Shown one piece after another: positions 1 through 17,527 of a stretch of DNA of 64,000 nucleotides. The stretch covers positions 1 to 64,000 of IMG/VR virus record IMGVR_UViG_3300029267_002727, one strand, 5' to 3'. The stretch is from a virus. The notes under the pieces are model-generated. The model saw only the letters and a program-made list of their open reading frames with translations, was not told the origin of the DNA and did not search any database. Both the position numbers and the translations under genes were made by a program. The first letter of the stretch is position 1. The number at the start of each line of letters is the position of its first letter.

Positions 1-2691
1 GGCGTCGCTCTGGTGATTGTGCACAGCGTCGGCCCATACCACGTCCCAGTCCAACTGCCCGCCCGAGTCCGCAGCATGAGTGTGGGCCTCGTCGTGATGA
101 TCGTCTGTGCCCACGCCAGAGAGGTCGCTGTGAGCAACCTGCCCACCATCCCCCGCATCCCCAGTATGATCATGGTCCGGGACCGTTGAGAGGGCGTCGG
201 CGCCGCCATGGTCGTGCCTGGCGGAATGGTCACTGACATCCACTCCGTCTACGTCGCCTACGTTTGTAACCTCATTCGCACCCATATCCAAATTACCGGA
301 CATGGCTCGAGTGCCGTCCTCTAGGAGGTATTGTGTGTGATCGTCGTCCGTGAGGCCGCCCAGGTCTCCGTGGTCGGTTACGGGCACCCCTTCCAAGACC
401 GCGTTTGCGGGCCGGATATCCAGGAAGTCGGCGTTCGAGATGTCTGTCTCGCCCTCCTGGAAGACGATCGCGGCGAGCGGAATGCAGCGCGCCAGGCCGG
501 GGGGAGTTACGGGGTTGTCCGCTGCTAGGGCCGCAGCTTTGTTGGCGAACGTCTCAATGGGGTAGATGTAGTTGATTTTGTTCAGGGACCAGTAGAACAT
601 CCCCCGTACCCACTGGTTGTTAGGAATGGGGATCAGGCCGGTCCCGTCGTCCGGGTCGTCGTAATTCGCCGTGTCCACGTCGTTCGCGGACCCAGAATCC
701 CATGCGTCCGCCGCGTCGTGGAAGTGGGTTCGCATTGCGGTGTCCTTGCTGTTAGACGCGGCATGGGAACTGATGGTGTGGCCACCGATCACGAACACGA
801 TTGCGGTCATGACGACATCCAGGTCGCTTGCAGGATCAGAGGTGTAAGCAGACACGATGCCACCACTGATCACGCGCACCGGGAACATAAGCTCAAGGGC
901 AAAGGACACAGAGTATAGTCGGTCGTCTGCATCCTCGTCGTTCACCACGCCAACTATATCATCATCTTGCGCGCAGACTATGGCAACCAGCACCTGGTCG
1001 CTGTCTGTTGGCTGCGTCGTGGAGACCTGGAGAGTGTCGTGAGACACACCCTCGTCAAAATAGATGTAGTTGGGGGAGTTGTTGGTCATGGCCTGCGCGG
1101 CAGCCGAGTTGATCGAGTATACTGTGTTGTTGTAGTAAACTGTCCCGCTAGTCCAGTCCACATTCAGGCCGCCAGCATCCGTAACAACGCATCCTGTAGC
1201 GAGGCCCGGACTCCGACGCTCATACCTGATGTGGTCGTCATCGTTCAGGCCAAGAAGGTCGCCGTGTTCTAGGTGCGATATCCCCCAGAAGTCGCTCACG
1301 TCGGATGCGCCAGCACAACCTGCCGCGCCAGAGATCCACACCATGACATCCCCAGCAGATGGAGTTTCGTTATCCACGCAATTGCCGCGGATCCCCTTCA
1401 CGGTGACAGCGCCGCCGGCCGCTACTTCTGCGTCCTGAGAGGCTGCAACGCTCTGCCAGGCCGCCCCGCTATCCACTAGGATGTGGCCTGCCGTCCCGGC
1501 TGCCGGGACACTCCCGGAGCCTCCCCCGGCACCCCCGCCTATGCCACACCAGTATGTGCCATCATAGATCAATAGTAGGTGGTCATCTGCGTCGTCCAGA
1601 GAGACGTTTGCGGCCCCCTGAAACCAGATATTGTCCTGGTTGTGGCGCACGACTACTGTGCGGGCACTGTCGGCAGCCTTGATGATCAGCAGGTTTCCAA
1701 GCACGCCCCCGTTGATCGTGTCCAGGTTGTCAGTGGCCGCATCCCCGTTAGTGTCGATAGAATGATACAGTTGGGTCCTGGTGACCGCGCCAGCGGCGTC
1801 AATAGTAAGTTCTGTAAAGTCTTCTGCTTCGAGCTCTTTGATCTGGCGCAGGTCCTGGCCACCCTCCGCGTCGGAGGAGTGGTCGTGCACTGCGTCACTC
1901 CAGATGTCGTCCCAGTCGAGCTGGTCACCCTCACCGGCGCCACTATGGTCATGGTCTGGTAAAACGGTTCCGTCTGCCAGGTCCTGTAGCGCCCCCTCCA
2001 CATCATTTCCGGCAAAGTGCCCGCCTGCATCCTCGATGCCGATCATGGAGGCGCCCTCTCCGTTCGCAGTAGAGGCGAGCTCTGTTTCGGTGCGGTAGCG
2101 GCCGTCCCAGGTTACGCTAGTGTTGTCTGTCCAGGACGACCAGGCAGAATACATTACATCGTTGTCGCCGAGCCACCGGATAGCCCGAACCCGAAAATAG
2201 TACTGAGTTGGGTTGCCGGTATCGGTGTCTGCGTCTACTATCGGATACCGATAGTATGACCCGCGAGTGACCAGGGCGTCGGTCGCGCCGGAGGCGTCGG
2301 CCGAGGAGTTCGATTGCACCTGCCAGCAAATATCCTCGCCGGGGTAGGTATCCCACTGTACCCACAAGGCGCCAGGTACGGCCTTGACTGCCAAGTTGTT
2401 AGGTGGCGCGAGTATGCCGCGGTGGGACATGCGCGCCTTGAGCTCTTGTGATATCTTAGCCACGGCTATCACGCGTGCCAGGCGTTCGACGCGCGCTACC
2501 AGAACCTCGTCGCCCACATCGAGGTCTACGCATGACCGGGTGCGCTGGCACACCGTGCCACCGCTTAGACGTACAGACACCGTGCGGGACCCGCGAGAGT
2601 CCATGGCGATGACAGTCCCCACGTCGAACAGGGACGGAGACTCCTGCCTGATCATTTTACGTATGACATTTACGTCTTGGGCATTAAGCAT
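1..2691 (-). CDS. Tail fibre / receptor-binding protein (partial, runs off the window; >=897 aa; absent from the ORF track)
   Basis: Manual translation from ATG at 2691 (MLNAQDVNVIRK...) is open to position 1. It has an FN3-like segment (LAPPNNLAV...YYFRVRAIRW..YSAWSSW), repeated HxH motifs and a DHGDLGGLTDDDHTQYL motif typical of trimeric fibres. It is the last gene of the tail module. Confidence 0.8.
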   Translation of the reverse strand, partial: MLNAQDVNVIRKMIRQESPSLFDVGTVIAMDSRGSRTVSVRLSGGTVCQRTRSCVDLDVGDEVLVARVERLARVIAVAKISQELKARMSHRGILAPPNNLAVKAVPGALWVQWDTYPGEDICWQVQSNSSADASGATDALVTRGSYYRYPIVDADTDTGNPTQYYFRVRAIRWLGDNDVMYSAWSSWTDNTSVTWDGRYRTETELASTANGEGASMIGIEDAGGHFAGNDVEGALQDLADGTVLPDHDHSGAGEGDQLDWDDIWSDAVHDHSSDAEGGQDLRQIKELEAEDFTELTIDAAGAVTRTQLYHSIDTNGDAATDNLDTINGGVLGNLLIIKAADSARTVVVRHNQDNIWFQGAANVSLDDADDHLLLIYDGTYWCGIGGGAGGGSGSVPAAGTAGHILVDSGAAWQSVAASQDAEVAAGGAVTVKGIRGNCVDNETPSAGDVMVWISGAAGCAGASDVSDFWGISHLEHGDLLGLNDDDHIRYERRSPGLATGCVVTDAGGLNVDWTSGTVYYNNTVYSINSAAAQAMTNNSPNYIYFDEGVSHDTLQVSTTQPTDSDQVLVAIVCAQDDDIVGVVNDEDADDRLYSVSFALELMFPVRVISGGIVSAYTSDPASDLDVVMTAIVFVIGGHTISSHAASNSKDTAMRTHFHDAADAWDSGSANDVDTANYDDPDDGTGLIPIPNNQWVRGMFYWSLNKINYIYPIETFANKAAALAADNPVTPPGLARCIPLAAIVFQEGETDISNADFLDIRPANAVLEGVPVTDHGDLGGLTDDDHTQYLLEDGTRAMSGNLDMGANEVTNVGDVDGVDVSDHSARHDHGGADALSTVPDHDHTGDAGDGGQVAHSDLSGVGTDDHHDEAHTHAADSGGQLDWDVVWADAVHNHQSDA

Positions 2692-3886
2692 TTAGACACT
2701 CTCTAGTCTGCAAGATCGATCTAAGCACATAGACGATATCGTTTTCCCGAGCAACGCGGTATGATATAACGCTGACACGCCAATTGGTGCTGCCGTAGGT
2801 GATTATATCCTCTGGCTCTAACACAGGATTTGGGGCCATGTTGAACGTGTAGGCGTGTGCGTCCTCATACACCTGCTTGTGGCGCCGGGACGCCCGCGCA
2901 GACGTTTCGCTCTCAGAGAGGGCGTTTGGATCCGACTCGACGGCGAATATGTGTCCCTGCGTGGCCTCAGAAGTGCGAAAGTTCTCGATCTCATGCAGCG
3001 CTCCCACTAGCCGCAGGTGGGTCGGCGGGTAGATCTGGAGGCTCTCTGACACGGTAACCGGCCGATCAGAAGGAACTGTCCAGTCGGAGTCCGTGCCGGC
3101 CTCTCGCCATACCTTAACCGATCCGTCGTAGCGGGCCTGCGCCCGGATCTTGTCATGCCCCGCCACTCGGCCATACCCGGCCGACACGGCCTCTCCCGGG
3201 TCCACCGAGGCCCACTCTATCAACTGGTGTAATTGCGGCACTACCAGGCCATTGAAGGTGATCGTGTCGGATCCGTATACAGCGAACCCGAGGAGCGCGC
3301 CCCCATGGTCCTCGTCGTACTCCATCGTGTGCGTGAGAAGGTGCTTGTCGTCAAACCAAAGCATCACAGAGGCGTCGTCGATCGTGTCTATTGAACTGTA
3401 CCGGCGCGGCCATACAGCCACGGTGACGGCGGCCGCCCCGGTCTCCGCCATTGGCAAGCTGACAAGTACTGTCTCGACCCCCAAGTCAAGCTGCGACACC
3501 CCAACCGCGGTAGAAGTCCACCATATCATATATCCATCGTATGCCGAGTCGCAGTTGAAGAGAAATGCGCCCCGGTCACCAGTCTTCGTGAACGACGCAA
3601 CAAATCCCACGCTCGTTGCCGTGCGATACCTGACTTTGTACCACTGTGCGGCACCACCCCCAACCCCGTACAGAAGACCGCCGCTTGTGTACCAGGTGCC
3701 TTCTGCCCCCTCTAGGCTTACAACGGACGGCGTGGATGTATCGACGTCGAAGGCCTCGTTGATCCATGTCGCGAACTCCACATCATGGATCCCAGCGAAT
3801 GCCAGGCAGCGCTGGATCCCCACCTCCTGGGTGGTGGGCAGTCGGTCGTCATGGCATTGAAGTCCCTTGTATTTCGAGTTACTCAT
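2684..3886 (-). CDS. Minor tail protein (400 aa)
   Basis: Long ORF between tail tip genes with overlapping stop/start junctions; beta-rich composition. Confidence 0.6.
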   Translation of the reverse strand: MSNSKYKGLQCHDDRLPTTQEVGIQRCLAFAGIHDVEFATWINEAFDVDTSTPSVVSLEGAEGTWYTSGGLLYGVGGGAAQWYKVRYRTATSVGFVASFTKTGDRGAFLFNCDSAYDGYMIWWTSTAVGVSQLDLGVETVLVSLPMAETGAAAVTVAVWPRRYSSIDTIDDASVMLWFDDKHLLTHTMEYDEDHGGALLGFAVYGSDTITFNGLVVPQLHQLIEWASVDPGEAVSAGYGRVAGHDKIRAQARYDGSVKVWREAGTDSDWTVPSDRPVTVSESLQIYPPTHLRLVGALHEIENFRTSEATQGHIFAVESDPNALSESETSARASRRHKQVYEDAHAYTFNMAPNPVLEPEDIITYGSTNWRVSVISYRVARENDIVYVLRSILQTRECLNA

Positions 3887-6800
3887 GCTTGATATACTGA
3901 ATCGGCGCTGCCGACCCCCTCGCGGATCCGTCTACCCCCATCCAATTTACGTTGATTGCCGTTGCCCAATCCCCCGTTCGGTCATAGAAATTAGTGAATC
4001 GGTCATTTGTCCATACGATGACATTGCGCTCTGGATTGACTGTAATGTTGTATAGTGTTCTCGTTGCCCAGGCGACCTCGTTGGCATTCTGGCGTGTAAA
4101 GATCGCGCGCCCTGACCCCATACCGGAATGCCCAAACACGGTGCCCGCTGCCGCCACGCTAGTCGTCCCAGTCCCAAGATACAAATCCCCGTCATTATGA
4201 TACAGCAACAAACCACCAAGTGCATCTACTCCATGTTCGCCGGTGCCGCCCCCGGTTGGCGTAACTACCAAGGAGGCCGGGTTATAGCCAGAGTAGATAT
4301 AGCCGTTCCATGTTTGTACAAACCCCTTGCATACAGCACGTACCACCTGCCCGTCACTATGTCCGCTACTCACCCAGTCTGTGTACGTACCCGCCGACCA
4401 TAACAGCCCGTCCGCGCACCCGCCTGCATAACAGCCAAACCTCGGCACGCCATCCTCTGCGTATGCGGCGTAGCCGCAGCCTGTATTCCTAACCGTGACA
4501 TTGCAGACGCTGGCGCTATATGCTGCAAACCTGGTGTAACTTAACCCCCCGGCTGTTCCAGAGAAGTAGCCACACAGCACATAATTGAAGTTTGCCCAGC
4601 CTATGTATACGGTGCCATCTGGTCCAATGTCCAGGGCCCCGAATGTGCCGCTCCCATCATCGCCCGTCGCTGCGGCGCGCCCGGCCGCCGTGCTCATGAT
4701 TTGCGTCCATCTAATTGGGCTTGCCTCTATATCTACTGTGTAGTACACACCGTCAGACGTTGTGCACCAGGCCTGCTGCGACGGCCCAAGTGCGATGCGA
4801 TAGAGGGTCCCGGACAGTCCGCTGCTAATGTTTTCCCAGTTCGCGTCCTCATCCACATCGAAGAAATTCGAGCTCCTGCCAACATACGTTTGGTCGTACA
4901 GAATCATGCCGTATTCGTGCTCTACGCCGGGCACCGGCCAGGGGATCGGATCCCATGATGGCCAATCATCGGCATCAGAGTAGCTGTATCCCACCAGGCC
5001 GAACTTTCCAGTCCACGCACCGATAAACTCGCTCTCTGGCGACAGGACGCCGTCTAACTCGCCATCTCCGCTGTCCCATGCCAGCGCGGTGTAGGTTATA
5101 CCGTCCGTGCTTGTGTAGACATAGATCATCCCGTAGTGCACACGAGCCCAAATGTAGTACCAATTTGACCCGTCGATGGTCCAGCCCATGGCGGCAGAGG
5201 CGGCCAGGGTTGTCTCTATGCCGCCAGCCATCTTTTTTAAGCGGATCACGTCGTCGTCTGCGTAGTAGGACGCGTGAAAGAAATTGTCCTTATCATAAAT
5301 GTGAAATGCTACACCGGCATACTCTTCTTTGTCGGTGTAGTTAAGCTGAAACCCGGTGCGCGCAGACCCACTGAGCGCATTAGACACAAACGTGCTCACA
5401 GCTAGGGCCTGCATATTCGCAGAAACGAGGTCGCACTCCCCACCGGATGCCTTCCAGGATCCCAGGTACGGCGCCGTGTGCCGCAGCCCCCCGTATCCCG
5501 TACCAGTAGGGTCATTATAGGCGTCACGGCCGGCTTGCTGCCCGGGCCATTCTGCTGCGAAGTCGGACCTGATACGATTGAGCCTGCTCAGTCTGTCGCT
5601 GGTGGCCAGCTTGAGTTGGCGCTGCGGCATTTGCAGTGTGTCCTGCCACTGTACCAGATCCTCGGTAGACGTCTGTACCTGCAATGCGGACCCAGAGTAG
5701 TACCCCAGATGATATACAGCCTCAACGCGGTCCTCTGTCTTGGCAAGCGTACCGCTTAGTACGTCTGCCGGATTGGAGAGCGCCACGCTCGTGTTACGAA
5801 TGTTAGCCGCGTTTGACTCAAGTCCAATGACGTAGTCAGTGACATCCGTTGCTGTCGGAGACTGGCCAGCCCACGTTGTCATGGGGCTGCGCTTCGTCTC
5901 ATTCACACCCACGACATACAAATAGTCGTTGTCACGTGGCAGGATCACACAGGGAGACGCCTCACCCTCGATAAACTCCGGGAACTCCCAGTTGTCGCCA
6001 TCCATTGATCTCATGACGGCGGTCTTTGTGTAAGTGTAATCCCCAGTGCCTCCCCGGCGCATGTACGTGCACCAGGCATAGCCTCCCTCAAATGAGAGCC
6101 TGAGATGCTGCCTGGATGGGTACACTTCGATATTGTCGATCACGTCCATGGCGTCATGGTCTGACCAGCGCCCCCCGGACTCCCAAAACCGGACGATGCC
6201 TTGTACTCTATTGACCACGGACGTTACTTGTGTTCCTACTGCCCTGGAGCTCAGGTACGGCGACATTTCTGCGGCAAACATGATCAGATCCTTGCCGCCC
6301 ACAGTTGCGGCATCCATGGCATAGATAGGGAATGGCCAATAGACGTCGCTGTCCGTATTGCTCCATGAGGCGCCAGAATACTCGTAGTAATGCAGTTTGT
6401 GGTTTGCGCTCGACGTCGAGGTGACGTAGTGTACCTTGGTGTGGGATGTCGCGGCGAGATGCTCGCAGTTTGTTGCGGCTCCGACATCGACCTCTGCCCC
6501 GAATACCGCGGGGGCTGCACCGATGCTGTCGCACTTTCTGTAACAGATTCTGTCGTTAGTATTGACGTAAAAGAGGTATACCTCACTCCCATTGGCAACA
6601 AGAGATGGCTTAACCTTATACTTGGCGCCCGTAAGCGTAATCGTCGCGGCTTGCCACGTGTAATCGGACCCAACTTCAGACTGTAATGTTTCCACGATAG
6701 TGCTAACGGTGGAATCCGAGACACAGGATACGTCAGCTTGCTCAGCACTGTACGCGCGTACAAGCCATGTAGACGCCTGGATGGCGTCAAACCAATCACC

Positions 6801-6938
6801 GCTACGGGATTCGGTATCATGGGACGACCAGACAGGCCCGCTTCGCTGGAGCTCTACTTTAATGGAGATGTCTCCAGTAGCAGCCTGTACCGCCGCGTAG
6901 TTCGCAGCGCTTAACCCGCTTTCGGCTTGAGTGATCAT
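3879..6938 (-). CDS. Large tail tip / host-specificity protein with Asp-box (beta-propeller) and lectin-like segments (1019 aa)
   Basis: Lies two genes after the TMP; Asp-box-like RSMDGDNW and TSTDGITY; W/Y/G-rich. Confidence 0.6.
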   Translation of the reverse strand: MITQAESGLSAANYAAVQAATGDISIKVELQRSGPVWSSHDTESRSGDWFDAIQASTWLVRAYSAEQADVSCVSDSTVSTIVETLQSEVGSDYTWQAATITLTGAKYKVKPSLVANGSEVYLFYVNTNDRICYRKCDSIGAAPAVFGAEVDVGAATNCEHLAATSHTKVHYVTSTSSANHKLHYYEYSGASWSNTDSDVYWPFPIYAMDAATVGGKDLIMFAAEMSPYLSSRAVGTQVTSVVNRVQGIVRFWESGGRWSDHDAMDVIDNIEVYPSRQHLRLSFEGGYAWCTYMRRGGTGDYTYTKTAVMRSMDGDNWEFPEFIEGEASPCVILPRDNDYLYVVGVNETKRSPMTTWAGQSPTATDVTDYVIGLESNAANIRNTSVALSNPADVLSGTLAKTEDRVEAVYHLGYYSGSALQVQTSTEDLVQWQDTLQMPQRQLKLATSDRLSRLNRIRSDFAAEWPGQQAGRDAYNDPTGTGYGGLRHTAPYLGSWKASGGECDLVSANMQALAVSTFVSNALSGSARTGFQLNYTDKEEYAGVAFHIYDKDNFFHASYYADDDVIRLKKMAGGIETTLAASAAMGWTIDGSNWYYIWARVHYGMIYVYTSTDGITYTALAWDSGDGELDGVLSPESEFIGAWTGKFGLVGYSYSDADDWPSWDPIPWPVPGVEHEYGMILYDQTYVGRSSNFFDVDEDANWENISSGLSGTLYRIALGPSQQAWCTTSDGVYYTVDIEASPIRWTQIMSTAAGRAAATGDDGSGTFGALDIGPDGTVYIGWANFNYVLCGYFSGTAGGLSYTRFAAYSASVCNVTVRNTGCGYAAYAEDGVPRFGCYAGGCADGLLWSAGTYTDWVSSGHSDGQVVRAVCKGFVQTWNGYIYSGYNPASLVVTPTGGGTGEHGVDALGGLLLYHNDGDLYLGTGTTSVAAAGTVFGHSGMGSGRAIFTRQNANEVAWATRTLYNITVNPERNVIVWTNDRFTNFYDRTGDWATAINVNWMGVDGSARGSAAPIQYIKHE

Positions 6939-7348
6939 GTTACAGTCGAGTCGTCAAGAATCTGAAATGTCACGTTCCAATACACGCCGGACGGGTCTAT
7001 GTTCACGATGCCGCCCCGGTCAATCGAGAGGTACCCGGTGACCATGTTGTCCGTGATGTTTACGTCGTCGTGATAGTTTGGGATGAAGTAGACCTGCTTA
7101 CCGATCAGCCCCCGAAGGGTGAGCATCTCTGTCAAAGACACGCGAACTGTAGCCTTGTCCTCCTCGAATTGGTACGGGTCTCCAGAGCCGTCCACGACAC
7201 GATGCACGTGCAACCTGCCAGTCACGCTACGCTCGGACACCAGTGGAACGGTGGGCGTGTGGTCCCACGAGTCATGTAACACGTGGTAGGTTGCCACGGG
7301 TGGGTTTACTGTGTCCAGGTAGCAAATATCTTGTATGCCGTATGCCAT
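6935..7348 (-). CDS. Putative distal tail (Dit-like) protein
   Basis: 137 aa, directly after the TMP; assigned by synteny only. Confidence 0.45.
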   Translation of the reverse strand: MAYGIQDICYLDTVNPPVATYHVLHDSWDHTPTVPLVSERSVTGRLHVHRVVDGSGDPYQFEEDKATVRVSLTEMLTLRGLIGKQVYFIPNYHDDVNITDNMVTGYLSIDRGGIVNIDPSGVYWNVTFQILDDSTVT

Positions 7349-10300
7349 TATCTGCCCCCAATCACGCCGCCGGTGGTATCCTGAGATCCAGGCGGGATGT
7401 TTTCGTAACCGGGTGGCCGGTAGTAGAGTGTGCTGTCATAGCTTGGCGTCGATGCGGCCGCGGCGCCCATTTTCGATAGCCAGTCAGACGCGAGAGAGTT
7501 TGCGCGAGTCAGAGCGGTAATCAGGTTCTGTGCAAACACCCGCTGGAGGGCCACTGCGTTCTCCAGGCTCTGGTTGACCGCCATCTGCACGGCATTGATC
7601 GCGCGGGTCTTCTCCTCGAGTTGCTTCTGCATGTCAAGCTGTTCACGCGCCATGTCGATGTTGAGGCGCGCCCCGTGCTCCCGGATATCCTGGAGCTCGT
7701 TCTCCAATGCCCTGCGTTGCTCGATGTAGCTTCTGTACCGGGACTGGTACTCGTCTTGCAGCTTGAACCGTTCTAGGAACTGTCGCTTCTCGCGCTCGAG
7801 ATCTTCCTTGGCCCACTGCTCCCGGACATCCAGGCGCTCGCCCTGCGTCTCGAGACGGCCCATCCCCATCGCGTACTGGATGGTTTGGCGGTCCTGCTGC
7901 TTCATGAGGGCCCTGCGCTCGCGCCCGGTGGCGTAGCGCATCTTCTCTTGGATGTCCTCCTGCCCCCAGGCGTATTGGAGGGTCTGTTGAGCCCCCTGGA
8001 AGGCCAGGTCCTCGCGCTGCCAACCAAACTGGACCGGCGTGCGCTCAGCCTTGACTTGCCAGTTCTCCATAAACTGGCTGAACTGAAGTTGGCGCTGCTG
8101 CTGCTGGTATTGCTGGGTGAAGTCCTCCCAGATCCGACCCAGGTTGCGGAGTTCTCGTTGGATAGCGAAGGAGCCGCGCGTCTCGAACCCCTCGAAGTTG
8201 CCGCCGAATTGGGAAACCTCGCCCCATTGCTGCTTGCGCTCTGCCTGAGCGAACTGGAAGTCCTTGTACTCGTACTGGAGGCCCAACTGCTCACGCTGAA
8301 GGCCCCGGAGACCCTCTTCCTGCACCAGGCCCGCGTACTCACCCATCCTGCCCACATCGACGCCGCTCGCAGGTCGGAACCCCTCCAGGAACCCGCCGTA
8401 CATCTCGGTGGTGCCCATCTTGAGGCCGCTCGATTCAGTGAGGGGGCGAAGCTCCTTGAACATCCCCTCTAGGGCACGTACACCAGAGGGGTCCGTATGA
8501 CGAATCTCGTCCATGAGCGCCGTGAACGGCTCTGCGATCTGGCCGGCGACGTCGAACTGCATGGCTCCAACCTGTGCCGTGCCGCCACCGACGTTCCCTG
8601 CTCCAATCAGGTTGAGCATTTGCTGGTCGCCCTGCATGAAGCGAGTAAAGTTCTGCATGGCTTCGATGTTGCCCCCGAACCCCTCAGTAATTCCGGCTCC
8701 AGTTAGGCCATATTGAGCCAGTTGGCCCTGGAGTCCCATTTGTGCCTGAAGGAGAGGCATCTGCTGAAGGCGCTGTTCCTCTACCGGGGCCGCCCCTTCT
8801 CCCAATTCCGGTTCGGCCGGCTCAAGGCCGAGCAGGCGCGCCTGTTGAGCTTGCGCCCCCCACTGGCCGAGTGCGGCCTGGCCCAGGGCATCCAGGCGCT
8901 CGAGTTCTGGCTCACCGCGCCCGGTGTACCAGCGCCCCTCTTCTTCGTCCCACATTCTCTGCTGGCGACCGAAAGCCATCTCGCGCACTTCTTCGCCTTC
9001 CATGCCGAATTGGGTGAGGGGTTGCCACTGCCGGGCTATCCATTCAGAGCGCTGTGCCTGGCCGGGAGACACCGCAAGCTGCTGGTCCATAACAGCCTGC
9101 CAGTTCGATGGGTCCATGCCCCACTGTTGCGCGACTTGTTGGAACTGTCCGGGCTGCATGCCGCGCATAGCCATCGCAGCAAACCTGGGATCTCTGTAGA
9201 CGTCTCGTATATTGGTCTCGTCGGGTGTAGCCTGCATCCAGGCCTGCGCCCCGGCCATCGCTTGCTCTGGCGCCATCCACTCGGGCGCGTAGAGGCGAGT
9301 AGCTTCTTGTACTGCTGCGAGGCGACCGGCGCCAGTCAGGCCTGCCAGTTCTCCCGATCTGAGTCGCTCTCCGTACGCTGTAAGTTCGACTGGCGGGCCC
9401 TGAGTCGCCCCCCTGGAAAGATTGGGGCGCGCCCCTGGCGCGTACCTGCGATCGGACATAGCCGCCAGTCTGTAGTCCCAGCCGGCTGACGGGCCCTGGG
9501 CAGCCGCGAGCGCCATCTTTTCCCTGTCGCCCATAGCCTGTTGTGAATAGCTTGTAGTGCCGTACAGGGCAGCCAGCGCCGCGATCGGTAGCCCAACGCC
9601 AGTGGCTGAGAGGCCGGCTATGCCGGCAAGGGAGCCACCCACCAGGCCGGCCCCGATCGCAGGTAGTCCAATGCCAGCGGCCTGCGCCAGTCCACCGCCA
9701 GTTACCCCCTGTTGCGCCCACCCCCATGCACCAAACGCAGCCTCGCCCACCTGCCCCTTAAACTGTTGCTGCTGGGCCTGGTAGGCCATAAGCTGCATGG
9801 CCATATCTCCGCTGGCGACTTGACCCATTGGCATCCCGACAGACGCCACCTGTGCGGCGGCCATTTCTTGCTGTGCGGCGATCGGTATCTGGCCCATGGC
9901 GTACCCGCCAGTCATACCCCACAGCCGCTTGAGACGCATAAGTTCCCAGCCGCTCGTTACCCCTCTGACCATCTTGTCTGCGCCGCGTAGCGGCCCCCAG
10001 GCCCCGAGGGCACCCTTCTGCCACTCCGGCGTTCCTGCTGGCGGGCCACCCCGACCGCCGTCCCCACCATCTCCTCCCGCCGCCAGGCGATTAAACTTGG
10101 CCTGCTGCATGAACTCGTCCATGCGGGCCAGGTTCTCCATTCCCGGGAGTACGTAGGTGCCACCCTCTTGCGCGGTCAGCGTTTCCCCGGCTCCCCGCAA
10201 CTCCCGCATTTCCGCACCCTGCCATGTTTGCCGCAACCCACGCTCGACGTTTTTCTTCCATTGGAGCGTCTGGTTGGTGAGCTCCTTCATCTCCTTGGTG

Positions 10301-13300
10301 AACTCTTCTGTCCCCTCGACTGCGGGGCGCACCGTCTCGTTCCACGTATCCAGGTTCTTGGCGAGCATTTCCACGGACGTGCGGAACGTTCGGGCGCTGA
10401 CACCAAGAATGCGCTCCACCGGCGATCCACCCTGAGCCTCTCCTGTCTCTGACACAGGACGGTTTCCAGCCTGTACTGGGCGCTGCGGAGCGGGCGCGGC
10501 AGTAGCAGCGGGCCTACTCGGCGGCTTTTGTCCGCCACCCTGACCTTGCTCGATCACCCATCGGGCGTTCATAGCCTCTTCTTGCGCTTCCTTGTCGCTC
10601 ATCCCGGCCGCTATCGCTCGGTCGTATGCCTGCTTAGCAGCGGCACTGGCTTGCGCCGCCTCCGGGCTACTAGCATCTATTGAGCCAGCAGGTGTCCCGC
10701 CGAACTCGGCCTGCTCTGAGAATGTAGTAGCCTCGGGCGGGGTTGTGGACGGGGGCTGTAAGCCGGCTTCCTGCGAGGTGATCCCGTACTCGGCCTCCAA
10801 GGGCGCCGCGGTACTGACAGGCCTTGGTAGCGGGGTGCCGGCCTGCGTCGTCATTGGCGCACTTGCCACGTCCATAAATTGCCAGCCGCGCTCTTCTGCT
10901 GGGGCTGTGCTTCTGGACTTGACGAACCCGGCCCCTAGTCCGGCCTCGTGCACCGCCTTCGCGCGCGCTACCGCCCAGTCATTATATTCTTCGGACCCGG
11001 GCCTCACCCCCTCTGGGGGATGCTTTGACATTGCCAGCCGCCACGACTTGATATCTTTCGTGGCTTCGGCAAGTTGCCCGCTCTGTAACCACTCCTCGGG
11101 GAGATTAGCCAGGAAGCTCTCTGCTGCCGACTGCTCCTTGGCTAATTTCGCATTGGCTTGTTCCTGCGTTTGCCCCTCGAATGGCGTTGCTTCACGTTGG
11201 CGCATTTTGGTCTTGGCGCGCTCGACAGCACTCACCGTTGCCGCGCGACCAAGTGGCGACTCCAGCATCCTCTCTTCGCCACCGGCATAGCGGGTGAGCA
11301 TTCTCCCGACTTCGACTTGTTCCTCTGTACCAAGTCCGCCAGCAGCTATGCGAGCAAATTGCTCTTCCATGGCCCCGATGTTGCCCTCGGGGGCAATGAG
11401 CTCGGCGGCCTGGCGTGGCGTCAGCGCAGCTTCTTCTTCTGACAGGGAGCCTGGTTGCACCAAGCTCTTCAGGGAACTGAGCAGGTTCTGTTGCATGCCG
11501 GCTAGCCCGGTCATTCTCCCACCACCTGGCTTCCCACTGGCTGTTCTCCAGCCACCAGTCCAAGGCTTGTATCCACGGAAGATGTCTGTGAACTGCTGAA
11601 GTGCTGGGGGTAACTCCTTGGGTCGCTGTGCGGTCTGGTAGGTCATATTGAACAGCGCTTGTGCTGCGCCCAGCCGCTCGCCACCACCCTTACCCATGCC
11701 GGCCGCGCGCATTAGGTTCTCGTAGGTGTTGTAGATCCCGCCGATTCGCTCTCGGAGCTCGAGATCTCCTGCGAGGGCCTTCTGCAATTCTTCTGGGGTG
11801 TATTCGTTCCACTCAGATACATCCAGAGCTTTGTGCATCCCCGCCGCGCTACCAGGGCCAGCCCCAACCTCCCCGGCCAACTCACCGGCACCCCAGCCTA
11901 CTTGCTGCTGAGCCATCTCCCTAAGTTGTTCTCGTGTGGCGAATGGCGCTTCCTGCCCGGCGATCGTCATGCCGCCACCTTCGCCACGTGTTACCCTGCC
12001 CAGCCACATGCGCATCATCAGGTCGGCGTCCCAGTCGCCGGCACCGGACTGTGTGAGTTCCTGGCTTGTAATAAACGGTGTTTCTTCACTGAGAAGGACA
12101 CCCTTCTCTGATGCTGCGCGTGGGTGTATCGCGCGACCGGCAACCTGGAACGGCTCGTCGCCAACAACGGGATACCTGGTAAGCGCCGCGGCAGGGACGG
12201 GCAGGCCGGCCTCGCGTGCCTCCTCGATGCCCATCTTGCTGCCCTTGTACCAACGCCTCTCGAACTCCTCTGCCTCCCTTGACCCTGGCTTGATGCCGTA
12301 TCCGCGCAACACCGCTTCTACTGGTGCCTGGAACTCCTCTGGCGCCAACGCTGGGTCACCATGGATCACACCACCCTCGCCCCGCTTAATGAATGCGCCG
12401 GTAGCAGCGCGCATCATTTTTCTGCCAAGGCCAAGTTCTGCCTGCGCTCCGATGGCCCTCTCCATAATCTTCTCGTACTCTCCCTCGCCATAGCCGCCCC
12501 GGCCAGTTGCGAGGGCCTGGAGGGCTTGCCCGTAGCGCCAATTAAACGCTGTGACCTCTTCTCCCTCTACTCCGCCATGTGCCCGGAACCTCTGCGCAAC
12601 GGCAGGCGCAGCCAGATAGCGCCCTCCACCGATCGAGATCGGACTGGTTCCGTATTGTTCGGCTGCCTGCTCCAGGATCGCGCCCTGCATCATCCCCGGA
12701 GGAATATTCCTTGGTGTGCCTTCCTCTGTCATTCCGACGCGCGCCTGGGCACGGACCTGGGCGCCGGCCATGAGTTCCCTGAGAGATTCCTTGGTCGGGG
12801 AAATTGTTCCCTGCGGGGTCTCGAACTCGCCGGTGCTGGCCAGGGCGGCATTGACGATACCCTGATAGGTCTCTCGCGTGCCCTGGGATTCTGCCATCAC
12901 ACGCTGGTGCATCTCTGGGTTCACGCGCTCCATACGCTCGAGCTCGCGCGCACTGTAGAACGGCCTGCGTGTGGGGAAATTGCGCCCGATAGGCGTAAAC
13001 GTCTCACCCATCATCAGGGTGGGGACCTCGGCGCTGAACTTGTACATCCCCTCACCCTGAGCCTCCCATGTGGCCCCCGGGATCTTCTTGGAGAGCTCCT
13101 CCCACCCTCTGCTTCCCTCATGTACCATCCTGGTATACCGGACATTCTCGGTGATGTCAGGAAGCATTTGTTGGAACGCGCGCACAAGGGGCTCGCCGGC
13201 CTCCTTCCACGTCTCCGGCATCTCGCCGGTGTACCCCTGTTCTGCGAGTAGCGCCTGGAGCCTCTCTGGCTGCTGAGCCATCATATACTGCCAGGCTGTG

Positions 13301-15303
13301 CCCAGTGGCTCCTTGTACTGCATCAGCATCTCGATATCACTGCGCCCCGTGAATGCCTGGATATCACCAACGGGCAGGGTTTCTTTGGTGCCGCCCGTCT
13401 TTCCGTACAGCGCGGCCCTTTCGGGTGCGATACTGCGTTCAAATACGGCCCGGTAGCCGCCGCCCTCCCTCTCTGCTATGTCGAGTAGCTCCGCCTGTTC
13501 CCAGGCCCCCCTACGCAGCAGGTTAAGCGGGGACGCCCCTTCAAACATCCTTATGTCTTCACCGACGCCCCACTTGGTGCCCACCTTTGCGAGTTCTTCA
13601 ACCGGGAATCCCTCGGGGACGTCAATATCCTTGGTGTAGCGCTGTGACACGCGCTCGATCGCGCCCTCTCCCAACATACCCATGCCGGCAGGAGTGACAT
13701 TCATCAATGGCATTGCTGCCCTTAACAAGGTCCCCCGCTGAGGCGTTTCGGAGGCGGGACCGCCACGCATAGCCGCCGGAACAGAGGTCTCCCGAAGGCC
13801 CTGCGCTGTCCACTGATAGATATCGAGGCCCTCATGTGATCCCAGGAGGGCGGTACGCTTGGCCAGCTTACTCTCGCCAACGGGGGTTTTAACGGATCCC
13901 GGCGTAGAGCCAGGTAGCCAATATCCAGATTCTGCTAGTGTACTAACGGGATAGAAAGCGGAGGACCCCTGGCGCGTCCAGATAGGCTCATTTGCACCCA
14001 GCGCCGTCTCTGCCTGGGACCACTGGGTGGCACCGGGCATGCGTCCATACTGTTCCTCCTGTTTGGCACCCCACGGCATCTCTGCTCTACCACGGACTCT
14101 CCGGTGCTCCTCCATGTAGCGCCACTCACGCGGAGAGTACGGGTCCTTCATCTTCTCCAGGGTGGGATCATAACGCGCCTTTGGCCGCGCGCCAAACCGA
14201 GACGTCATTTGCTGCTCGAGGTAGTCGCGGGCCGCCTCCGGCGTGCTGGATTCTCCAAGGCCCTCCTTGAGCATGCCCCTGAGCTCGCTCTGGGTATATC
14301 CGTACCTCATGTAATCAGCGAGGACGGTTTGGTATTGCTGCTGGCTGGTCTCGGCCCTTGCCTGGGCGGCCTGCGCGGCTTGTTGCTGTTGCTGGAATTG
14401 GTGATAGGGGATCTGCGTCACCTCGCCAGTGGAGCCGACCACGCCTATCATGGGGTTGGTGGGGCTCCCCGCTGGCGATGCAGAAGTGCCAATTCCTCTA
14501 GAGATCGCCTGGGCCTGCGGCGTCATCTGAGACGACACAGCGGTGCCGGGAACGGGTGCCCCCCGGGCTTGCCCCATCTGCACAAGCTGGTCGAGCAGCC
14601 TCTTGGTGGCACTAACGTCTGCCAGGGCATCGTGCGCCCCAAACTCCGGGAGGCCGAGTTTCTTACTGATAGCACTCAGCTTATACGACCCGCCAGCCTC
14701 CTGCCTGTTGACGACCCTGCGAGCCAGGGCGAGCGTGTCAACTAGTTGCATGCCATGCAGACTAGACGATGGAGGGGCAAACCCAATATCGAACGGTGAG
14801 TTGTGACCGACAGCGCTCTCCACGCCCCCGACACTGGCGATTAGACGGTCTAGCTCGCCCCATGCCTCCTGCTGTGAGGGGGCGCCCTGTAGCTGCTCGG
14901 GGCCAATGCCGTGGACGGACTGAGCTTCCGGGTTGATTGGCACCCCACCAGGGTCGATATAGGTGTTGTAGGAGATGGGGTCCCGACCAGGGACGTGGAT
15001 CTGCGCGCCAAGCTGAATGGCGACATCCTTGGAGGTAAGGCCGGTGGTCTCTACATCGAAGACGACGTGTGATCCAGGGGTTGGGTTTTGTTGTGTAGCC
15101 GCTGGGGCAAATTGGGCCTGAAGCACGGGGTATTCAGCTATCACTTCTGGTGGCACCGGCTTGCCCGCCGCCAGGGCCTGCCTTACATACTCGGCATGGT
15201 CCTCTGCATCGCCGTAGCCGCCTTGCCATTGCTCGCGGCGTGCAGCCTCCATAAATTCCTGTTGGCTCATTTCCCAGAATGGGCGTTTAGCTGATACTGC
15301 CAT
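7348..15303 (-). CDS. Tape measure protein fused to an N-terminal DEDDh 3'-5' exonuclease and a two-barrel (DPBB) RNA polymerase-like region (2651 aa)
   Basis: Follows the tail tube and frameshifted chaperones. Exonuclease motifs: FDVETTG (D83/E85), HNSPFD (D172), HDALAD (H224/D229). Beta'-type DPBB motifs: GGVIHGDPAL, LTRYP (R1043), GDWDAD (D1090/1092/1094). C-terminus has a hydrophobic G/A/L segment and a long Q/E/R coiled coil. Confidence 0.8.
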   Translation of the reverse strand: MAVSAKRPFWEMSQQEFMEAARREQWQGGYGDAEDHAEYVRQALAAGKPVPPEVIAEYPVLQAQFAPAATQQNPTPGSHVVFDVETTGLTSKDVAIQLGAQIHVPGRDPISYNTYIDPGGVPINPEAQSVHGIGPEQLQGAPSQQEAWGELDRLIASVGGVESAVGHNSPFDIGFAPPSSSLHGMQLVDTLALARRVVNRQEAGGSYKLSAISKKLGLPEFGAHDALADVSATKRLLDQLVQMGQARGAPVPGTAVSSQMTPQAQAISRGIGTSASPAGSPTNPMIGVVGSTGEVTQIPYHQFQQQQQAAQAAQARAETSQQQYQTVLADYMRYGYTQSELRGMLKEGLGESSTPEAARDYLEQQMTSRFGARPKARYDPTLEKMKDPYSPREWRYMEEHRRVRGRAEMPWGAKQEEQYGRMPGATQWSQAETALGANEPIWTRQGSSAFYPVSTLAESGYWLPGSTPGSVKTPVGESKLAKRTALLGSHEGLDIYQWTAQGLRETSVPAAMRGGPASETPQRGTLLRAAMPLMNVTPAGMGMLGEGAIERVSQRYTKDIDVPEGFPVEELAKVGTKWGVGEDIRMFEGASPLNLLRRGAWEQAELLDIAEREGGGYRAVFERSIAPERAALYGKTGGTKETLPVGDIQAFTGRSDIEMLMQYKEPLGTAWQYMMAQQPERLQALLAEQGYTGEMPETWKEAGEPLVRAFQQMLPDITENVRYTRMVHEGSRGWEELSKKIPGATWEAQGEGMYKFSAEVPTLMMGETFTPIGRNFPTRRPFYSARELERMERVNPEMHQRVMAESQGTRETYQGIVNAALASTGEFETPQGTISPTKESLRELMAGAQVRAQARVGMTEEGTPRNIPPGMMQGAILEQAAEQYGTSPISIGGGRYLAAPAVAQRFRAHGGVEGEEVTAFNWRYGQALQALATGRGGYGEGEYEKIMERAIGAQAELGLGRKMMRAATGAFIKRGEGGVIHGDPALAPEEFQAPVEAVLRGYGIKPGSREAEEFERRWYKGSKMGIEEAREAGLPVPAAALTRYPVVGDEPFQVAGRAIHPRAASEKGVLLSEETPFITSQELTQSGAGDWDADLMMRMWLGRVTRGEGGGMTIAGQEAPFATREQLREMAQQQVGWGAGELAGEVGAGPGSAAGMHKALDVSEWNEYTPEELQKALAGDLELRERIGGIYNTYENLMRAAGMGKGGGERLGAAQALFNMTYQTAQRPKELPPALQQFTDIFRGYKPWTGGWRTASGKPGGGRMTGLAGMQQNLLSSLKSLVQPGSLSEEEAALTPRQAAELIAPEGNIGAMEEQFARIAAGGLGTEEQVEVGRMLTRYAGGEERMLESPLGRAATVSAVERAKTKMRQREATPFEGQTQEQANAKLAKEQSAAESFLANLPEEWLQSGQLAEATKDIKSWRLAMSKHPPEGVRPGSEEYNDWAVARAKAVHEAGLGAGFVKSRSTAPAEERGWQFMDVASAPMTTQAGTPLPRPVSTAAPLEAEYGITSQEAGLQPPSTTPPEATTFSEQAEFGGTPAGSIDASSPEAAQASAAAKQAYDRAIAAGMSDKEAQEEAMNARWVIEQGQGGGQKPPSRPAATAAPAPQRPVQAGNRPVSETGEAQGGSPVERILGVSARTFRTSVEMLAKNLDTWNETVRPAVEGTEEFTKEMKELTNQTLQWKKNVERGLRQTWQGAEMRELRGAGETLTAQEGGTYVLPGMENLARMDEFMQQAKFNRLAAGGDGGDGGRGGPPAGTPEWQKGALGAWGPLRGADKMVRGVTSGWELMRLKRLWGMTGGYAMGQIPIAAQQEMAAAQVASVGMPMGQVASGDMAMQLMAYQAQQQQFKGQVGEAAFGAWGWAQQGVTGGGLAQAAGIGLPAIGAGLVGGSLAGIAGLSATGVGLPIAALAALYGTTSYSQQAMGDREKMALAAAQGPSAGWDYRLAAMSDRRYAPGARPNLSRGATQGPPVELTAYGERLRSGELAGLTGAGRLAAVQEATRLYAPEWMAPEQAMAGAQAWMQATPDETNIRDVYRDPRFAAMAMRGMQPGQFQQVAQQWGMDPSNWQAVMDQQLAVSPGQAQRSEWIARQWQPLTQFGMEGEEVREMAFGRQQRMWDEEEGRWYTGRGEPELERLDALGQAALGQWGAQAQQARLLGLEPAEPELGEGAAPVEEQRLQQMPLLQAQMGLQGQLAQYGLTGAGITEGFGGNIEAMQNFTRFMQGDQQMLNLIGAGNVGGGTAQVGAMQFDVAGQIAEPFTALMDEIRHTDPSGVRALEGMFKELRPLTESSGLKMGTTEMYGGFLEGFRPASGVDVGRMGEYAGLVQEEGLRGLQREQLGLQYEYKDFQFAQAERKQQWGEVSQFGGNFEGFETRGSFAIQRELRNLGRIWEDFTQQYQQQQRQLQFSQFMENWQVKAERTPVQFGWQREDLAFQGAQQTLQYAWGQEDIQEKMRYATGRERRALMKQQDRQTIQYAMGMGRLETQGERLDVREQWAKEDLEREKRQFLERFKLQDEYQSRYRSYIEQRRALENELQDIREHGARLNIDMAREQLDMQKQLEEKTRAINAVQMAVNQSLENAVALQRVFAQNLITALTRANSLASDWLSKMGAAAASTPSYDSTLYYRPPGYENIPPGSQDTTGGVIGGR

Positions 15304-15625
15304 GGATGATGGTCTCTAGATTCGCTATCTCGTCCTGTGCCATTGCGTATGCGTTGGCGCACACGGCAAACTCCATGAGGAGTAGGTGGGGCTGATCGGA
15401 GGTTCCTCCCTCCCACCATGGGCCATTCTTCTCACAGAGCCTCCAAAGCCGATATGGCTCAGGCATCTCTGCATCCAGTCGCGGCACCAGGGCCTGCTTC
15501 CTGATCTCTCGCTGCTTGTCTGGGTGTGCGTGCTCGTACCAGCCTTGCAGGGCCCAGTTGTGTACCGCTTCTTCTAACTCCTCGAGGTGCGCTAGGAGTT
15601 TGTCTGGTCCTTTGGCCCTTCCCCC
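15287..15625 (-). CDS. Tail assembly chaperone, frameshift extension (gpT-like)
   Basis: Open -1 frame overlapping the end of the upstream chaperone and ending at the TMP start. Confidence 0.65.
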   Translation of the reverse strand, partial: GGRAKGPDKLLAHLEELEEAVHNWALQGWYEHAHPDKQREIRKQALVPRLDAEMPEPYRLWRLCEKNGPWWEGGTSDQPHLLLMEFAVCANAYAMAQDEIANLETIIHGSIS

Positions 15626-16080
15626 TCCGGCTGCCTCAAGTCCCAGTCTGGGTTCATTTCCCATGCCGCATAGCGTAGCGCGCGCGTCACGAGCGGGCTC
15701 TGGGCGCCAAAACTCTTCAAGAAATCACGGAATGTGCCCTCGACGTAGCGAGCGTGCATCTTGCCGCTGGAGAACTTGCAGAGCGGCTCCCCGTCAGGAC
15801 CGAAGATGTTCCCCGCGTCACACATGCAACGGAACACCTGCATGGCCCATACCTCGCGCATGCGCGAGTCACGGATCTCCTGCACCTCGTTTTCAGACCA
15901 TACCACGCGGCGCTCCGAGGACATCTGGTCGATCGCCATGCTGTCGGCCTCAGTGGCCTGTCGCACGATCACGTATGCCTTTTCCTCATTGGGGCACTCT
16001 CCCTCCAGCAGTTCGATTTGCGGAACGAGGTCTTGAAGATATATTACATCGGACACGGTTGGAAGGGCCTTGATGGCCAT
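15592..16080 (-). CDS. Tail assembly chaperone (gpG-like)
   Basis: ATG at 16080 after AAGGAGAG; lies between tail tube and TMP. Confidence 0.65.
   Translation of the reverse strand: MAIKALPTVSDVIYLQDLVPQIELLEGECPNEEKAYVIVRQATEADSMAIDQMSSERRVVWSENEVQEIRDSRMREVWAMQVFRCMCDAGNIFGPDGEPLCKFSSGKMHARYVEGTFRDFLKSFGAQSPLVTRALRYAAWEMNPDWDLRQPEGEGPKDQTNS
15619..15625 (-). other. Putative -1 programmed frameshift site G GGG GAA
   Basis: GGGGGAA is in frame (codons GGG GAA) near the end of the chaperone ORF; the downstream ORF is exactly in the -1 frame. Confidence 0.65.
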
Positions 16081-16090: not shown

Positions 16091-16375
16091 TTAGAACAGT
16101 TCGTCCCTCGGTATCGAGGGTAGCGCAGGCCTCTTAGTGACCCGCTTGCGCTTCTTCTCGGCACATTCCGGGCACGGCTCTTTCGGCTGTAGCCCCGCAT
16201 CGCCCGGACCAGCGGCAGCTAACTCTATCCGTACTCCGCGCAGTGTCTTGTTGGCCGCTACCAGTTGGGCTTGGTGTAGCCTGCGCAGGAATGCGTTTGT
16301 TGCAAAGCCTGGTGGGGCAGAGCGGGACACAGCCCGCTCTGCCAAACCAAGCAGTTGAGCAAGGGTGATCTCCAC
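16091..16375 (-). CDS. Hypothetical protein (CxxC, basic C-terminus)
   Basis: GTG immediately after the tail tube stop; fills the gap in the operon. Confidence 0.45.
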   Translation of the reverse strand: MEITLAQLLGLAERAVSRSAPPGFATNAFLRRLHQAQLVAANKTLRGVRIELAAAGPGDAGLQPKEPCPECAEKKRKRVTKRPALPSIPRDELF

Positions 16376-17527
16376 CTACGGCAAGTCGTAGTCGGCCTTC
16401 GCGTTCTGTAACAGAATGGTGAACGGGTCACCGCTCTCTGTTGACAAAACCGTCGCCGTAACCTGCAACACGATCGGCCGGTTTGGCTGAACCCGGATAG
16501 GCCGGGCCTGCCAGGCCACGTTGTCCTCGGACGTGTCGCTGATCAGGCGAATCCGATAAGGCTCTGTACCGGAGATGTAGGTCTGTGATGTGAACTCGAC
16601 ATCCACATCGGCCTTGTAAACGATGCAAGTCGCATTGGCGTCTGTCAGGCCATCGTTCGTTGCCCCAGAGAATGTCGATACGTACAGACCATAATCTTCG
16701 ATCAGGATAGTTGCCGTCACGGTCACAGCGCGCCCCAGAACCGGGTAGTCGATCGGGTCGATGGATCCGATCTGGAGCGACTGGGCGGGCGGCAGCAGGG
16801 TGTTCACCACCGTTACGGATGCAGCCGTGGCCTGGAACGACGTACTCTCGACCTTGAAGTGCCCGGAGCAATTGGCCACCGGGAAGTGATCAAATTCGTC
16901 GTACGATGCGGTCCAGCCAGGGTTGAAGTCGAAGTCGTAGTCGCTCTGGTACAGCCGGGCCATGACATCCAGGTCTGCCGTCACGGGCGCGGCAGCGGCG
17001 CCGGTCACCGTGAGCGCGGCAACGCGCGCATCCTGTAAGATCTCGCCAAGTTCGTATGTCGATGTTGGATGTGGTAGCAGTCGCCGGAGTGTCAGGTATG
17101 GGATGAAGAACTGGTCGCTCGAGTAGAAGCGGAAGATGTGAGTGTTGATCCCGGCATCGGCTCCACTGCCACCGGCTAGGTAGTGCGCGATGGTTGTGTC
17201 AGACACGGTGGATACGTCACCCATTGCAGCCAGGAGCAGCCATCCAAAGCGGTTGTCGAGACGCGGAATAAGCGAGATGCCACCCGCGCCCCATGCGCCC
17301 GCAACGAACATGCCGCTTGGCAGTGCACGGCCGCCGATCTCTGGCGGCAGCGCAGCCTGGTTCTTCATTGGCCCGAAGGCCAGGTCCCGCGCGACGTAGT
17401 AGTAAAACTGGTTGTCGGTCGTGTTGGGGACCTCGAACCCGGCCACCATCTTGGCATGGTCGGTTCCGGCGCCACTTTGCTGGATGGCGGCCCCGATCAA
17501 TGCGTTATTGGGCATGATTAGTGCCAT
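16376..17527 (-). CDS. Major tail tube protein
   Basis: 383 aa, strong RBS AAGGAGG, position upstream of chaperones/TMP, beta-rich. Confidence 0.7.
   Translation of the reverse strand: MALIMPNNALIGAAIQQSGAGTDHAKMVAGFEVPNTTDNQFYYYVARDLAFGPMKNQAALPPEIGGRALPSGMFVAGAWGAGGISLIPRLDNRFGWLLLAAMGDVSTVSDTTIAHYLAGGSGADAGINTHIFRFYSSDQFFIPYLTLRRLLPHPTSTYELGEILQDARVAALTVTGAAAAPVTADLDVMARLYQSDYDFDFNPGWTASYDEFDHFPVANCSGHFKVESTSFQATAASVTVVNTLLPPAQSLQIGSIDPIDYPVLGRAVTVTATILIEDYGLYVSTFSGATNDGLTDANATCIVYKADVDVEFTSQTYISGTEPYRIRLISDTSEDNVAWQARPIRVQPNRPIVLQVTATVLSTESGDPFTILLQNAKADYDLP

Follow-up and report, generated by a model that had tools for sequence, protein, structure and literature searches.

A phage tape measure gene whose front half is predicted to form a single-chain two-barrel RNA polymerase

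In Thermus phage P23-45, residues 327-1124 of the 5002-amino acid (aa) protein gp96 form an active virion RNA polymerase with the metal loop DFDGD, which is fused to the tape measure (PMC10770324). The gp96 enzyme is a promoter-specific transcriptase, and its fusion to the tape measure was presented as a previously unsuspected association (PMC10770324). In addition, the polymerase has a flat shape with no clamp, and the phage encodes a paralogous non-virion polymerase, gp64, as its partner (PMC10770324). In our literature search, only this paper was found to describe a polymerase-tape measure fusion, in P23-45 and its close relatives. Here we describe a giant tail gene on the minus strand of IMG/VR virus record IMGVR_UViG_3300029267_002727, of which positions 1 to 64,000 were analyzed as one stretch of 64,000 nucleotides (nt), hereafter called the window. 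The 2651-aa product of this gene contains a cellular-type single-chain two-barrel RNA polymerase at about aa 440-1460, as confirmed at the level of the predicted structure. A sequence-only reading of the same DNA had proposed such an enzyme within the tape measure gene, and the proposal is now supported by an invariant aspartate triad together with a confident model that matches RNA polymerases.

Translation of the window gives one uninterrupted open reading frame (ORF) at 7348-15303, and its domains are laid out as follows.

7348..15303, minus strand: exonuclease, predicted RNA polymerase, linker and tape measure in a single polypeptide (continuous frame)
14596..15066, minus strand: N-terminal DEDDh 3'-5' exonuclease domain, aa 80-236 (Pfam RNase_T, PHROG 192)
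12883..14106, minus strand: predicted beta/Rpb2-like module with the second barrel, aa 400-807, including K482, K640 and K664 (VIA-align)
10927..12828, minus strand: predicted beta'/Rpb1-like module, aa 826-1459, with a helical connector, the catalytic barrel, a bridge-helix-like helix and C-terminal helices (VIA-align)
11872..12396, minus strand: predicted catalytic double-psi beta-barrel, aa 970-1144, with RYP and the DWDAD metal loop, nt 12022-12036 (VIA-align, conservation)
10384..10893, minus strand: low-complexity P/A/T/Q/S/G-rich linker, about aa 1471-1640 (model confidence, composition)
7348..10383, minus strand: tape measure part, about aa 1641-2651, with a hydrophobic segment and a conserved C-terminal module (hydropathy, shared module)

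The motifs on which the sequence-only reading was built were all recovered in this one gene, in the same places and the same order. The motif GEGGVIHGDPALAPEEFQAP occupies aa 982-1001 and is followed by AAALTRYP (R1043, P1045), by PFQVAGRAIHP and then by PFITSQELTQSGAGDWDAD, which holds D1090, D1092 and D1094 in the sequence DWDAD (aa 1090-1094, nt 12036-12022), while K635 and K640 lie in YGKTGGTKE (nt 13407-13381). Logan contigs of runs X2 and X3, possibly the source samples, cover the entire gene with 0 differences and 0 indels, and those of a third run cover nearly all of it.

When aa 400-1500 were used as the query of a HMMER scan, 1.84 billion representative proteins yielded 42 relatives, most of them 2100-2900 aa long, and 27 fell below an E-value (E) of 1e-30. 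One sequence, P0002, is not independent: it represents the present gene itself, for which a later start codon had been chosen. Relatives of 2100-3700 aa share the layout, and this architecture recurs across dozens of them. As a whole, the family comprises at least 40 clusters at 50% identity, as well as 8 IMG/VR contigs, and belongs to uncultured siphophages from marine and other environments. When the names of ten relatives were checked, one was "hypothetical protein" and the other nine had no name. Other searches brought no relatives, including a tblastn comparison with 50,697 phage records, a search of 400 genomes of the host's phylum, and locus searches of viral and genome contigs with the core alone or with P0018 or P0008.

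Nearly all relatives spanning the region carry exactly one DxDxD at the equivalent place, and in many of them the loop is the canonical DFDGD or DYDGD. The invariant columns of a 32-sequence alignment (22-37% identity) are P1045, D1090, D1092 and D1094. In 19 full-length proteins the triad is likewise invariant, and so are K482, K640, K664, P830, I1187, Q1226 and P1228, while the local consensus reads R-[FY]-P-T-x-G-x-E ... S-x-x-L-x-Q-A-x-x-G-D-x-D-x-D. By chance, about 0.3 DxDxD motifs would be expected in 2651 residues at 5% Asp; the motif is not a chance occurrence, since none of the 32 aligned relatives, diverged as they are, departs from the triad. The conservation that the sequence-only reading had left to be checked in homologues is thus present. 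Its remark that the Ala of DWDAD is a notable variant was not upheld, because family members have G, A, K, S, E, M or Q at the fourth loop position and Ala is ordinary there. The arginine motif fared in between: P1045 is invariant, whereas R1043 is retained in about half of the relatives.

A short helical motif with the consensus M-x-x-G-Y-x-R-x-E-L was also observed ahead of the core (window 14239-14340, aa about 322-355). Its G335 is invariant in 19 relatives, and the motif is present even in proteins that lack the exonuclease. The family profile weakly resembles a RAD23 UBA domain (E 0.024).

At the sequence level, Pfam and PHROGs searches of the whole protein detected the exonuclease and no polymerase. 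Comparison with PDB sequences by phmmer and with the family profile gave noise only, including the weak RAD23 UBA-like match. With hhalign, the family profile aligned to Escherichia coli beta' at E 0.15 over the DxDxD loop only, and to E. coli beta at E 0.43 with nothing aligned in the core. The AlphaFold2 model of aa 400-1500, calculated from the family alignment, is confident, with a mean predicted local distance difference test (pLDDT) score of 88.9, a predicted template modelling score of 0.87 and disorder only after about aa 1470. Every top match of this model in a Foldseek search of the PDB is an RNA polymerase chain of the beta' or beta/Rpb2 type (best E 4.6e-6).

A VIA-align comparison with 48,161 representative chains, which is independent of Foldseek, was headed by QDE-1 (Z 10.2, 447 residues, model 1-955). 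Next to it were archaeal RpoA' (2pmz_A, Z 10.0, root-mean-square deviation (rmsd) 2.2 over 109 residues, model 570-744), vaccinia Rpo132 (6rfl_B, Z 9.9, model 1-381) and the largest subunits of Pol I and Pol II (Z 9.8-9.9, model about 427-1060). P74-26 gp62 also scored well (Z 8.6, 407 residues), and the non-virion polymerases of AR9 and phiKZ and the plant RDR2 appeared lower in the list. Generic double-psi barrels were placed on model 575-730 at Z 6-7, among which the designed barrel 7dww_A (Z 7.0) aligned over 83 of its 86 residues. In a second VIA-align pass limited to the best 1000 chains of Foldseek (992 scored), 696 of the 992 chains reached Z>=8, and all rows listed are RNA polymerases. 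Rpb2-type chains fell on model 1-380/408, with Pol II Rpb2 7ozn_B as the best (Z 11.8, 294 aligned residues, rmsd 4.4), and these matches cover Pol I-V, archaeal, vaccinia, African swine fever virus (ASFV) and bacterial enzymes over about 280-330 aligned residues. Rpb1, A190 and beta' chains were placed on model 427-1060 at Z about 10, with alignments beginning at Rpb1 residue 20-25, and QDE-1 on model 1-1059. From the positions of the Rpb2-type and Rpb1-type matches, therefore, aa 400-807 are predicted to be beta-like and aa 826-1459 beta'-like. The double-psi beta-barrel for which the sequence-only reading had suggested looking with AlphaFold and Foldseek is accordingly found in the model, where RpoA' and the designed barrel fit it and where nearly all matches are RNA polymerases.

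The model also places several conserved residues. The barrel is followed by a 34-residue helix (model 771-804) with the invariant I1187, and then by the invariant Q1226 and P1228. Between the two modules, about 190 aa form an ordered connector (model 381-570), and helices of about 190 aa follow the trigger-loop region in the predicted structure. K635 and K640 follow a beta-flap-like element (model 154-225, 3woe_A Z 5.3) directly, at a distance of 11-16 residues. In E. coli beta, K1065 and K1073 are the conserved basic residues of the beta-side barrel that face the active site, and the equivalent Thermus lysines also lie close behind the flap. The tentative assignment of K635 and K640 to this pair, made in the sequence-only reading, is positionally reasonable because both residues directly follow the flap-like element; of the 19 full-length proteins, all have K640 and 17 have K635. 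However, K482 and K664 are equally invariant, so that K635 and K640 are no more than candidates for this pair.

The exonuclease ahead of the core is clearly identified, with a Pfam RNase_T match of E 3.4e-19 (70.4 bits against a cut-off of 24), a PHROG 192 match of E 1.9e-32, and intact Exo I-III motifs (DVETTG, GHNSPFD and HDALAD). Since a DEDDh exonuclease adjoins a two-barrel core and PolD DP2 is among the structural matches (6t8h_B, Z 5.1), the protein might be read as a PolD-like two-barrel DNA polymerase with a proofreading exonuclease, delivered for the repair or replication of the incoming genome. We regard this as highly improbable: a Z of 5 stands against 10-12 for RNA polymerases, most family members have no exonuclease, and the alignments with Rpb2 and Rpb1 run over about 300 and 360 residues, including the region past the catalytic barrel. 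The exonuclease is shared only by the closest relatives and L002, an IMG/VR contig, and because of this restriction it is not integral to the enzyme. In other members, HhH, HTH_23, sigma-70 region 4 and Rho_N modules (the IMG/VR contigs L003 and L005) are present ahead of the core. Such nucleic-acid-binding N-terminal modules therefore fit a polymerase that engages DNA by itself.

The core also shows signs of selection. A minor strain in run X4 shows 17 differences in 13234-13348, and 15 of the 17 fall at third codon positions, indicating purifying selection on the beta-like module. The short contigs of this run (13204-13378 and 15296-15476) represent a second strain, about 7-10% diverged, whose differences are nearly all at third positions. 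These data bear on the possibility that the polymerase-like region is a dead relic serving as a structural or assembly plug, or that it is cut off before assembly and never reaches the virion. In its favor, activity and packaging are presumed from gp96, the long disordered linker could be a cleavage site, and related tape measures without a detectable core exist (L008, L013 and L014). In a dead domain, however, neither a triad and several lysines kept invariant at 22-37% identity nor strain differences concentrated at third codon positions would be expected, and we consider this explanation quite unlikely. As for the linker itself, the P/A/T/Q-rich stretch noted in the sequence-only reading is real: P, A, T, Q, S and G make up 65% of aa 1501-1600, and the pLDDT is <50 from model residue 1071 (about aa 1470), which marks the linker as disordered. 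It showed no similarity beyond the protein's own gene call and may serve as a processing site.

The polymerase core was detected by profile search in 7 distinct giant ORFs (L002, L003, L004, L005, L006, L007 and L011; E 7e-181 to 1e-22), three of which were found only by unfiltered search. At the other end of the protein, aa 2376-2610 are common to giant tail-module ORFs in 15 IMG/VR contigs, as found with a degenerate pattern from the C-terminal module. Contigs L008/L009, L013, L014, L010 and L015 share about the last 250 residues, and no core was detected in them by the profile search. Because relatives share the C-terminus without a detectable core, the tail module appears to be older and broader than the polymerase insert. 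The tape measure part also has a Gly/Ala-rich hydrophobic segment at aa 1870-1916 (hydropathy peak of 1.84 in a 19-residue window), and in the ESM Atlas the nearest named clusters to aa 1660-2651 are all tape measure proteins (0.87-0.89), which we treat as a lead only.

Several of these relatives have features of their own. L008:4973-10816 (identical in L009) encodes a 1947-aa tape measure relative without DxDxD and without a detectable core, which has a weak Sigma70_r2 match near its N-terminus (aa 86-119, E 1.7e-4, under the Pfam cut-off) and could, judged from its sequence, carry another transcription-related cargo on the tape measure. In L013 (2259 aa) and L014 (1444 aa) no core was detected either. 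L010:2072-11236 (3054 aa) and L015:2186-11194 (3002 aa) each have a single DxDxD near residue 900-1000 (DTDAD and DSDGD, respectively); neither matched the core profile even with filters off, and they may be more diverged polymerase fusions.

The gene lies behind the following tail genes.

16376..17527, minus strand: tail tube protein gene (Pfam Phage_tube_2, PF18906, E 5.9e-11)
15287..16080, minus strand: tail assembly chaperone pair, a 162-aa ORF at 15592-16080 and an overlapping -1 ORF at 15287-15664 (conservation in L002)

The two chaperone ORFs overlap by 73 nt (15592-15664). Both have homologs in L002 (36% and 41% identity) with the same -1 overlap, and the order on that contig is tube, 161-aa ORF, -1 ORF and 2415-aa ORF. 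A Phage_tube_2 gene also lies upstream of the giant ORF in L002 and L010, and the order of tube, chaperone pair and giant ORF is kept in both. This is the usual order of tube, G/GT chaperone and tape measure, so that the tape measure slot claimed in the sequence-only reading is supported by the tube match, the conserved -1 pair and the shared order. The -1 chaperone frame is coding, because all 8 differences of the minor strain of run X4 in 15344-15434 fall at its third codon positions, and a -1 frameshift probably links the two ORFs. Within the overlap, GGAGGGGGAAG occurs both in window 15592-15664 and at L002:9484-9535. This shared run is a candidate -1 slip site and not a canonical X_XXY_YYZ heptamer; a Shine-Dalgarno-like stimulator may be paired with the G-run or, in the window, with A_AAG located 10 nt downstream. 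No sheath gene was apparent.

As well, a strong GC-rich hairpin (GGCAGAGCGGG ... CCCGCTCTGCC, 16310-16345, minus strand) directly follows the tail tube gene. It sits in a gap of 176-296 nt ahead of the chaperone gene, the size of the gap varying with the chaperone start codon, and it looks like an attenuating terminator that might set the expression ratio of tube to tape measure.

Positions 90-64000 of the window are the first 63.9 kb of a 105.7-kb contig (C13). Its GC content is 58.8%, the bin that holds it has 62-65% GC and 7.6% contamination, and it is most likely a phage contig that was binned with a bacterial genome. Three or four metagenome studies of sediment and seawater contain this DNA, and no RNA data set was listed among the public runs that hold it. 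Genes in the remaining part of C13 code for an O-like initiator, a DnaC-like loader, a helicase, a single-stranded DNA-binding protein and a ParB-like partition protein (C13:76357-90938; L019, L020), and this temperate or plasmid-like replication module is an unusual setting for a virion RNA polymerase. Sigma-70-like promoters are present at 41.5-42 kb and 47.6 kb. A tblastn search of the whole assembly with the protein recovered, apart from its own gene, nothing but the C-terminus of a second tape measure; neither this search nor inspection of the large ORFs gave a second phage polymerase, with the limits that the contig may be incomplete and that a very diverged paralogue could be missed.

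The two-barrel enzyme might be active in a role other than promoter-dependent transcription: it could prime replication by making RNA at the DNA end that enters, or copy single-stranded DNA or RNA templates as QDE-1 does, with the exonuclease preparing the DNA end. Ordinary transcription could use the sigma-70-like promoters, no primase or DNA polymerase was found among the large ORFs of the contig, and no solved chain other than QDE-1, an enzyme that uses RNA and single-stranded DNA templates, could be aligned with the model from end to end. Nevertheless, the sigma-70 region 4 or HTH modules of some relatives fit recognition of double-stranded promoters, and the exonuclease is present in the closest relatives only. 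Moreover, the studied tape-measure-fused enzyme, gp96, is a promoter-specific transcriptase (PMC10770324), and on balance a primer-making or QDE-1-like role seems unlikely.

The right end of the contig (C13:94665-105743) holds the truncated C-terminus of the second tape measure (C13:104649-105725), 37% identical to aa 2376-2610. It also holds a second set of tail-tip genes (1060, 395 and 620 aa), which are 44-56% identical to the 1019-, 400- and 897-aa genes of window 1-7348 and which L005 (IMG/VR) resembles. Window 1-190 repeats C13:97505-97694. One possibility is that two related phages are joined in this contig; another is that a circular genome was walked into a variant occurring alongside it.

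Virion RNA polymerases start transcription before the phage controls its host, and they possibly help to draw the genome in. By analogy with gp96, we put the probability that the tape-measure-fused polymerase described here is an injected phage transcriptase at roughly 0.7. The front half of the tape measure protein would then be an enzyme cassette, composed of the DEDDh exonuclease and the single-chain two-barrel RNA polymerase, in which D1090, D1092 and D1094 would hold the catalytic Mg2+ and which the disordered linker would join to the classical tape measure part (aa about 1640-2651). Because it is translated as part of the tape measure, the cassette would become part of the tail, or of the junction between tail and head, in a virion with a non-contractile tail. 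At infection it would exit with the tape measure beside the leading DNA end and, in the cell or at an envelope pore, would transcribe the phage genes that enter first, with no requirement for the host polymerase. Catalytic activity, a DNA template, packaging, ejection and the set of transcribed genes are all presumed here on the model of gp96.

Several points weigh against an injected transcriptase. No sequence method ties the protein to any RNA polymerase (best E 0.15-0.25), and for this reason the case depends on a model from only 32 sequences. In addition, no tape measure family of Pfam or PHROGs is matched by the tape measure part, and it is not obvious that a tail tube can hold a folded core of about 110 kDa whose connector is ordered over roughly 190 aa. 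With its sigma-70-like promoters and its replication and partition genes of a temperate or plasmid-like type, the phage may have no strict need for a polymerase of its own.

If the enzyme is active, the fusion design would be general among long-tailed phages, and the family would offer a second, independent system for the storage and passage of a polymerase of about 110 kDa in a tail. It would also provide new compact single-chain polymerases, some of them with built-in DNA-binding modules, from mesophilic habitats and with an architecture distinct from that of gp96 (exonuclease, longer connector, C-terminal helices). To our judgment the chances are about even that polymerase-tape measure fusion is a recurrent design, possibly of independent origin, rather than a curiosity of Thermus phages, that the swapped N-terminal modules may decide how the DNA end or promoter is engaged, and that the enzyme is here the only phage polymerase in a temperate- or plasmid-like-looking genome with sigma-70-type promoters. 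More generally, many unannotated giant tail proteins may hide enzymes that are missed by sequence profiles.

Among known two-barrel polymerases, the module order of beta-like followed by beta'-like is common to the 2651-aa protein, QDE-1, YonO, gp66 and gp96. QDE-1, the only solved chain that extends across the whole model (Z 10.2-10.6, 376-465 residues over the two passes), is free-standing, as are P74-26 gp62/P23-45 gp64 and YonO, while phi14:2 gp66 is fused to a non-tail protein; none of them has sequence similarity to the protein described here. The phi14:2 gp66 structure (6VR4) is absent among the structural matches listed, which is not evidence against similarity. The cellular enzymes are multisubunit, whereas here one chain is present with no other subunits. 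The order of motifs is shared with cellular beta' (E. coli NRAPTLH ... NADFDGD, R425 ... D460/D462/D464), but the arginine and the first aspartate are 47 residues apart here and 35 in E. coli beta', and Gly is not obligatory as the fourth residue of the metal loop.

The closest counterpart in design is gp96, which was compared as the group of P23-45, P74-26, G20c and TSP4 (PDB 8H2M and 8H2N; the gp96 sequence was taken from the public record). Both proteins are single-chain two-barrel polymerases with DxDxD, placed N-terminal to the tape measure and encoded after the tail tube gene, and in both R-x-P precedes DxDxD (FRNPVMGH ... VDFDGD in gp96). The structural matches to gp96 have Z 9.3 and 9.2 over 290-329 aligned residues (VIA-align), no nearer than those to QDE-1, gp62 or the cellular subunits. 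The sequence-only reading had assigned the enzyme to a lineage separate from that of P23-45, in agreement with the absence of sequence homology to gp96: hhalign of the family profile against gp96 residues 1-1200 gave E 0.25 and a probability of 0.24%, with 27 columns aligned around DxDxD only. Since this comparison aligns only the metal loop, the two represent the same fusion design in separate sequence families. Unlike in gp96, an exonuclease precedes the polymerase, and no metallopeptidase domain was found by Pfam in the 2651-aa protein, which also differs in size (2651 aa vs 5002 aa) and in source (marine sediment or seawater vs hot spring). The connector between the barrels has about 190 ordered residues here and 67 disordered ones in gp96, and the helical region of about 190 aa after the trigger-loop area stands against the lack of a C-terminal region in gp96. 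In the predicted structure, this ordered connector, the helices after the trigger loop and the Rpb1 alignment from residue 20-25 onward point away from the flat, clamp-less shape of gp96.

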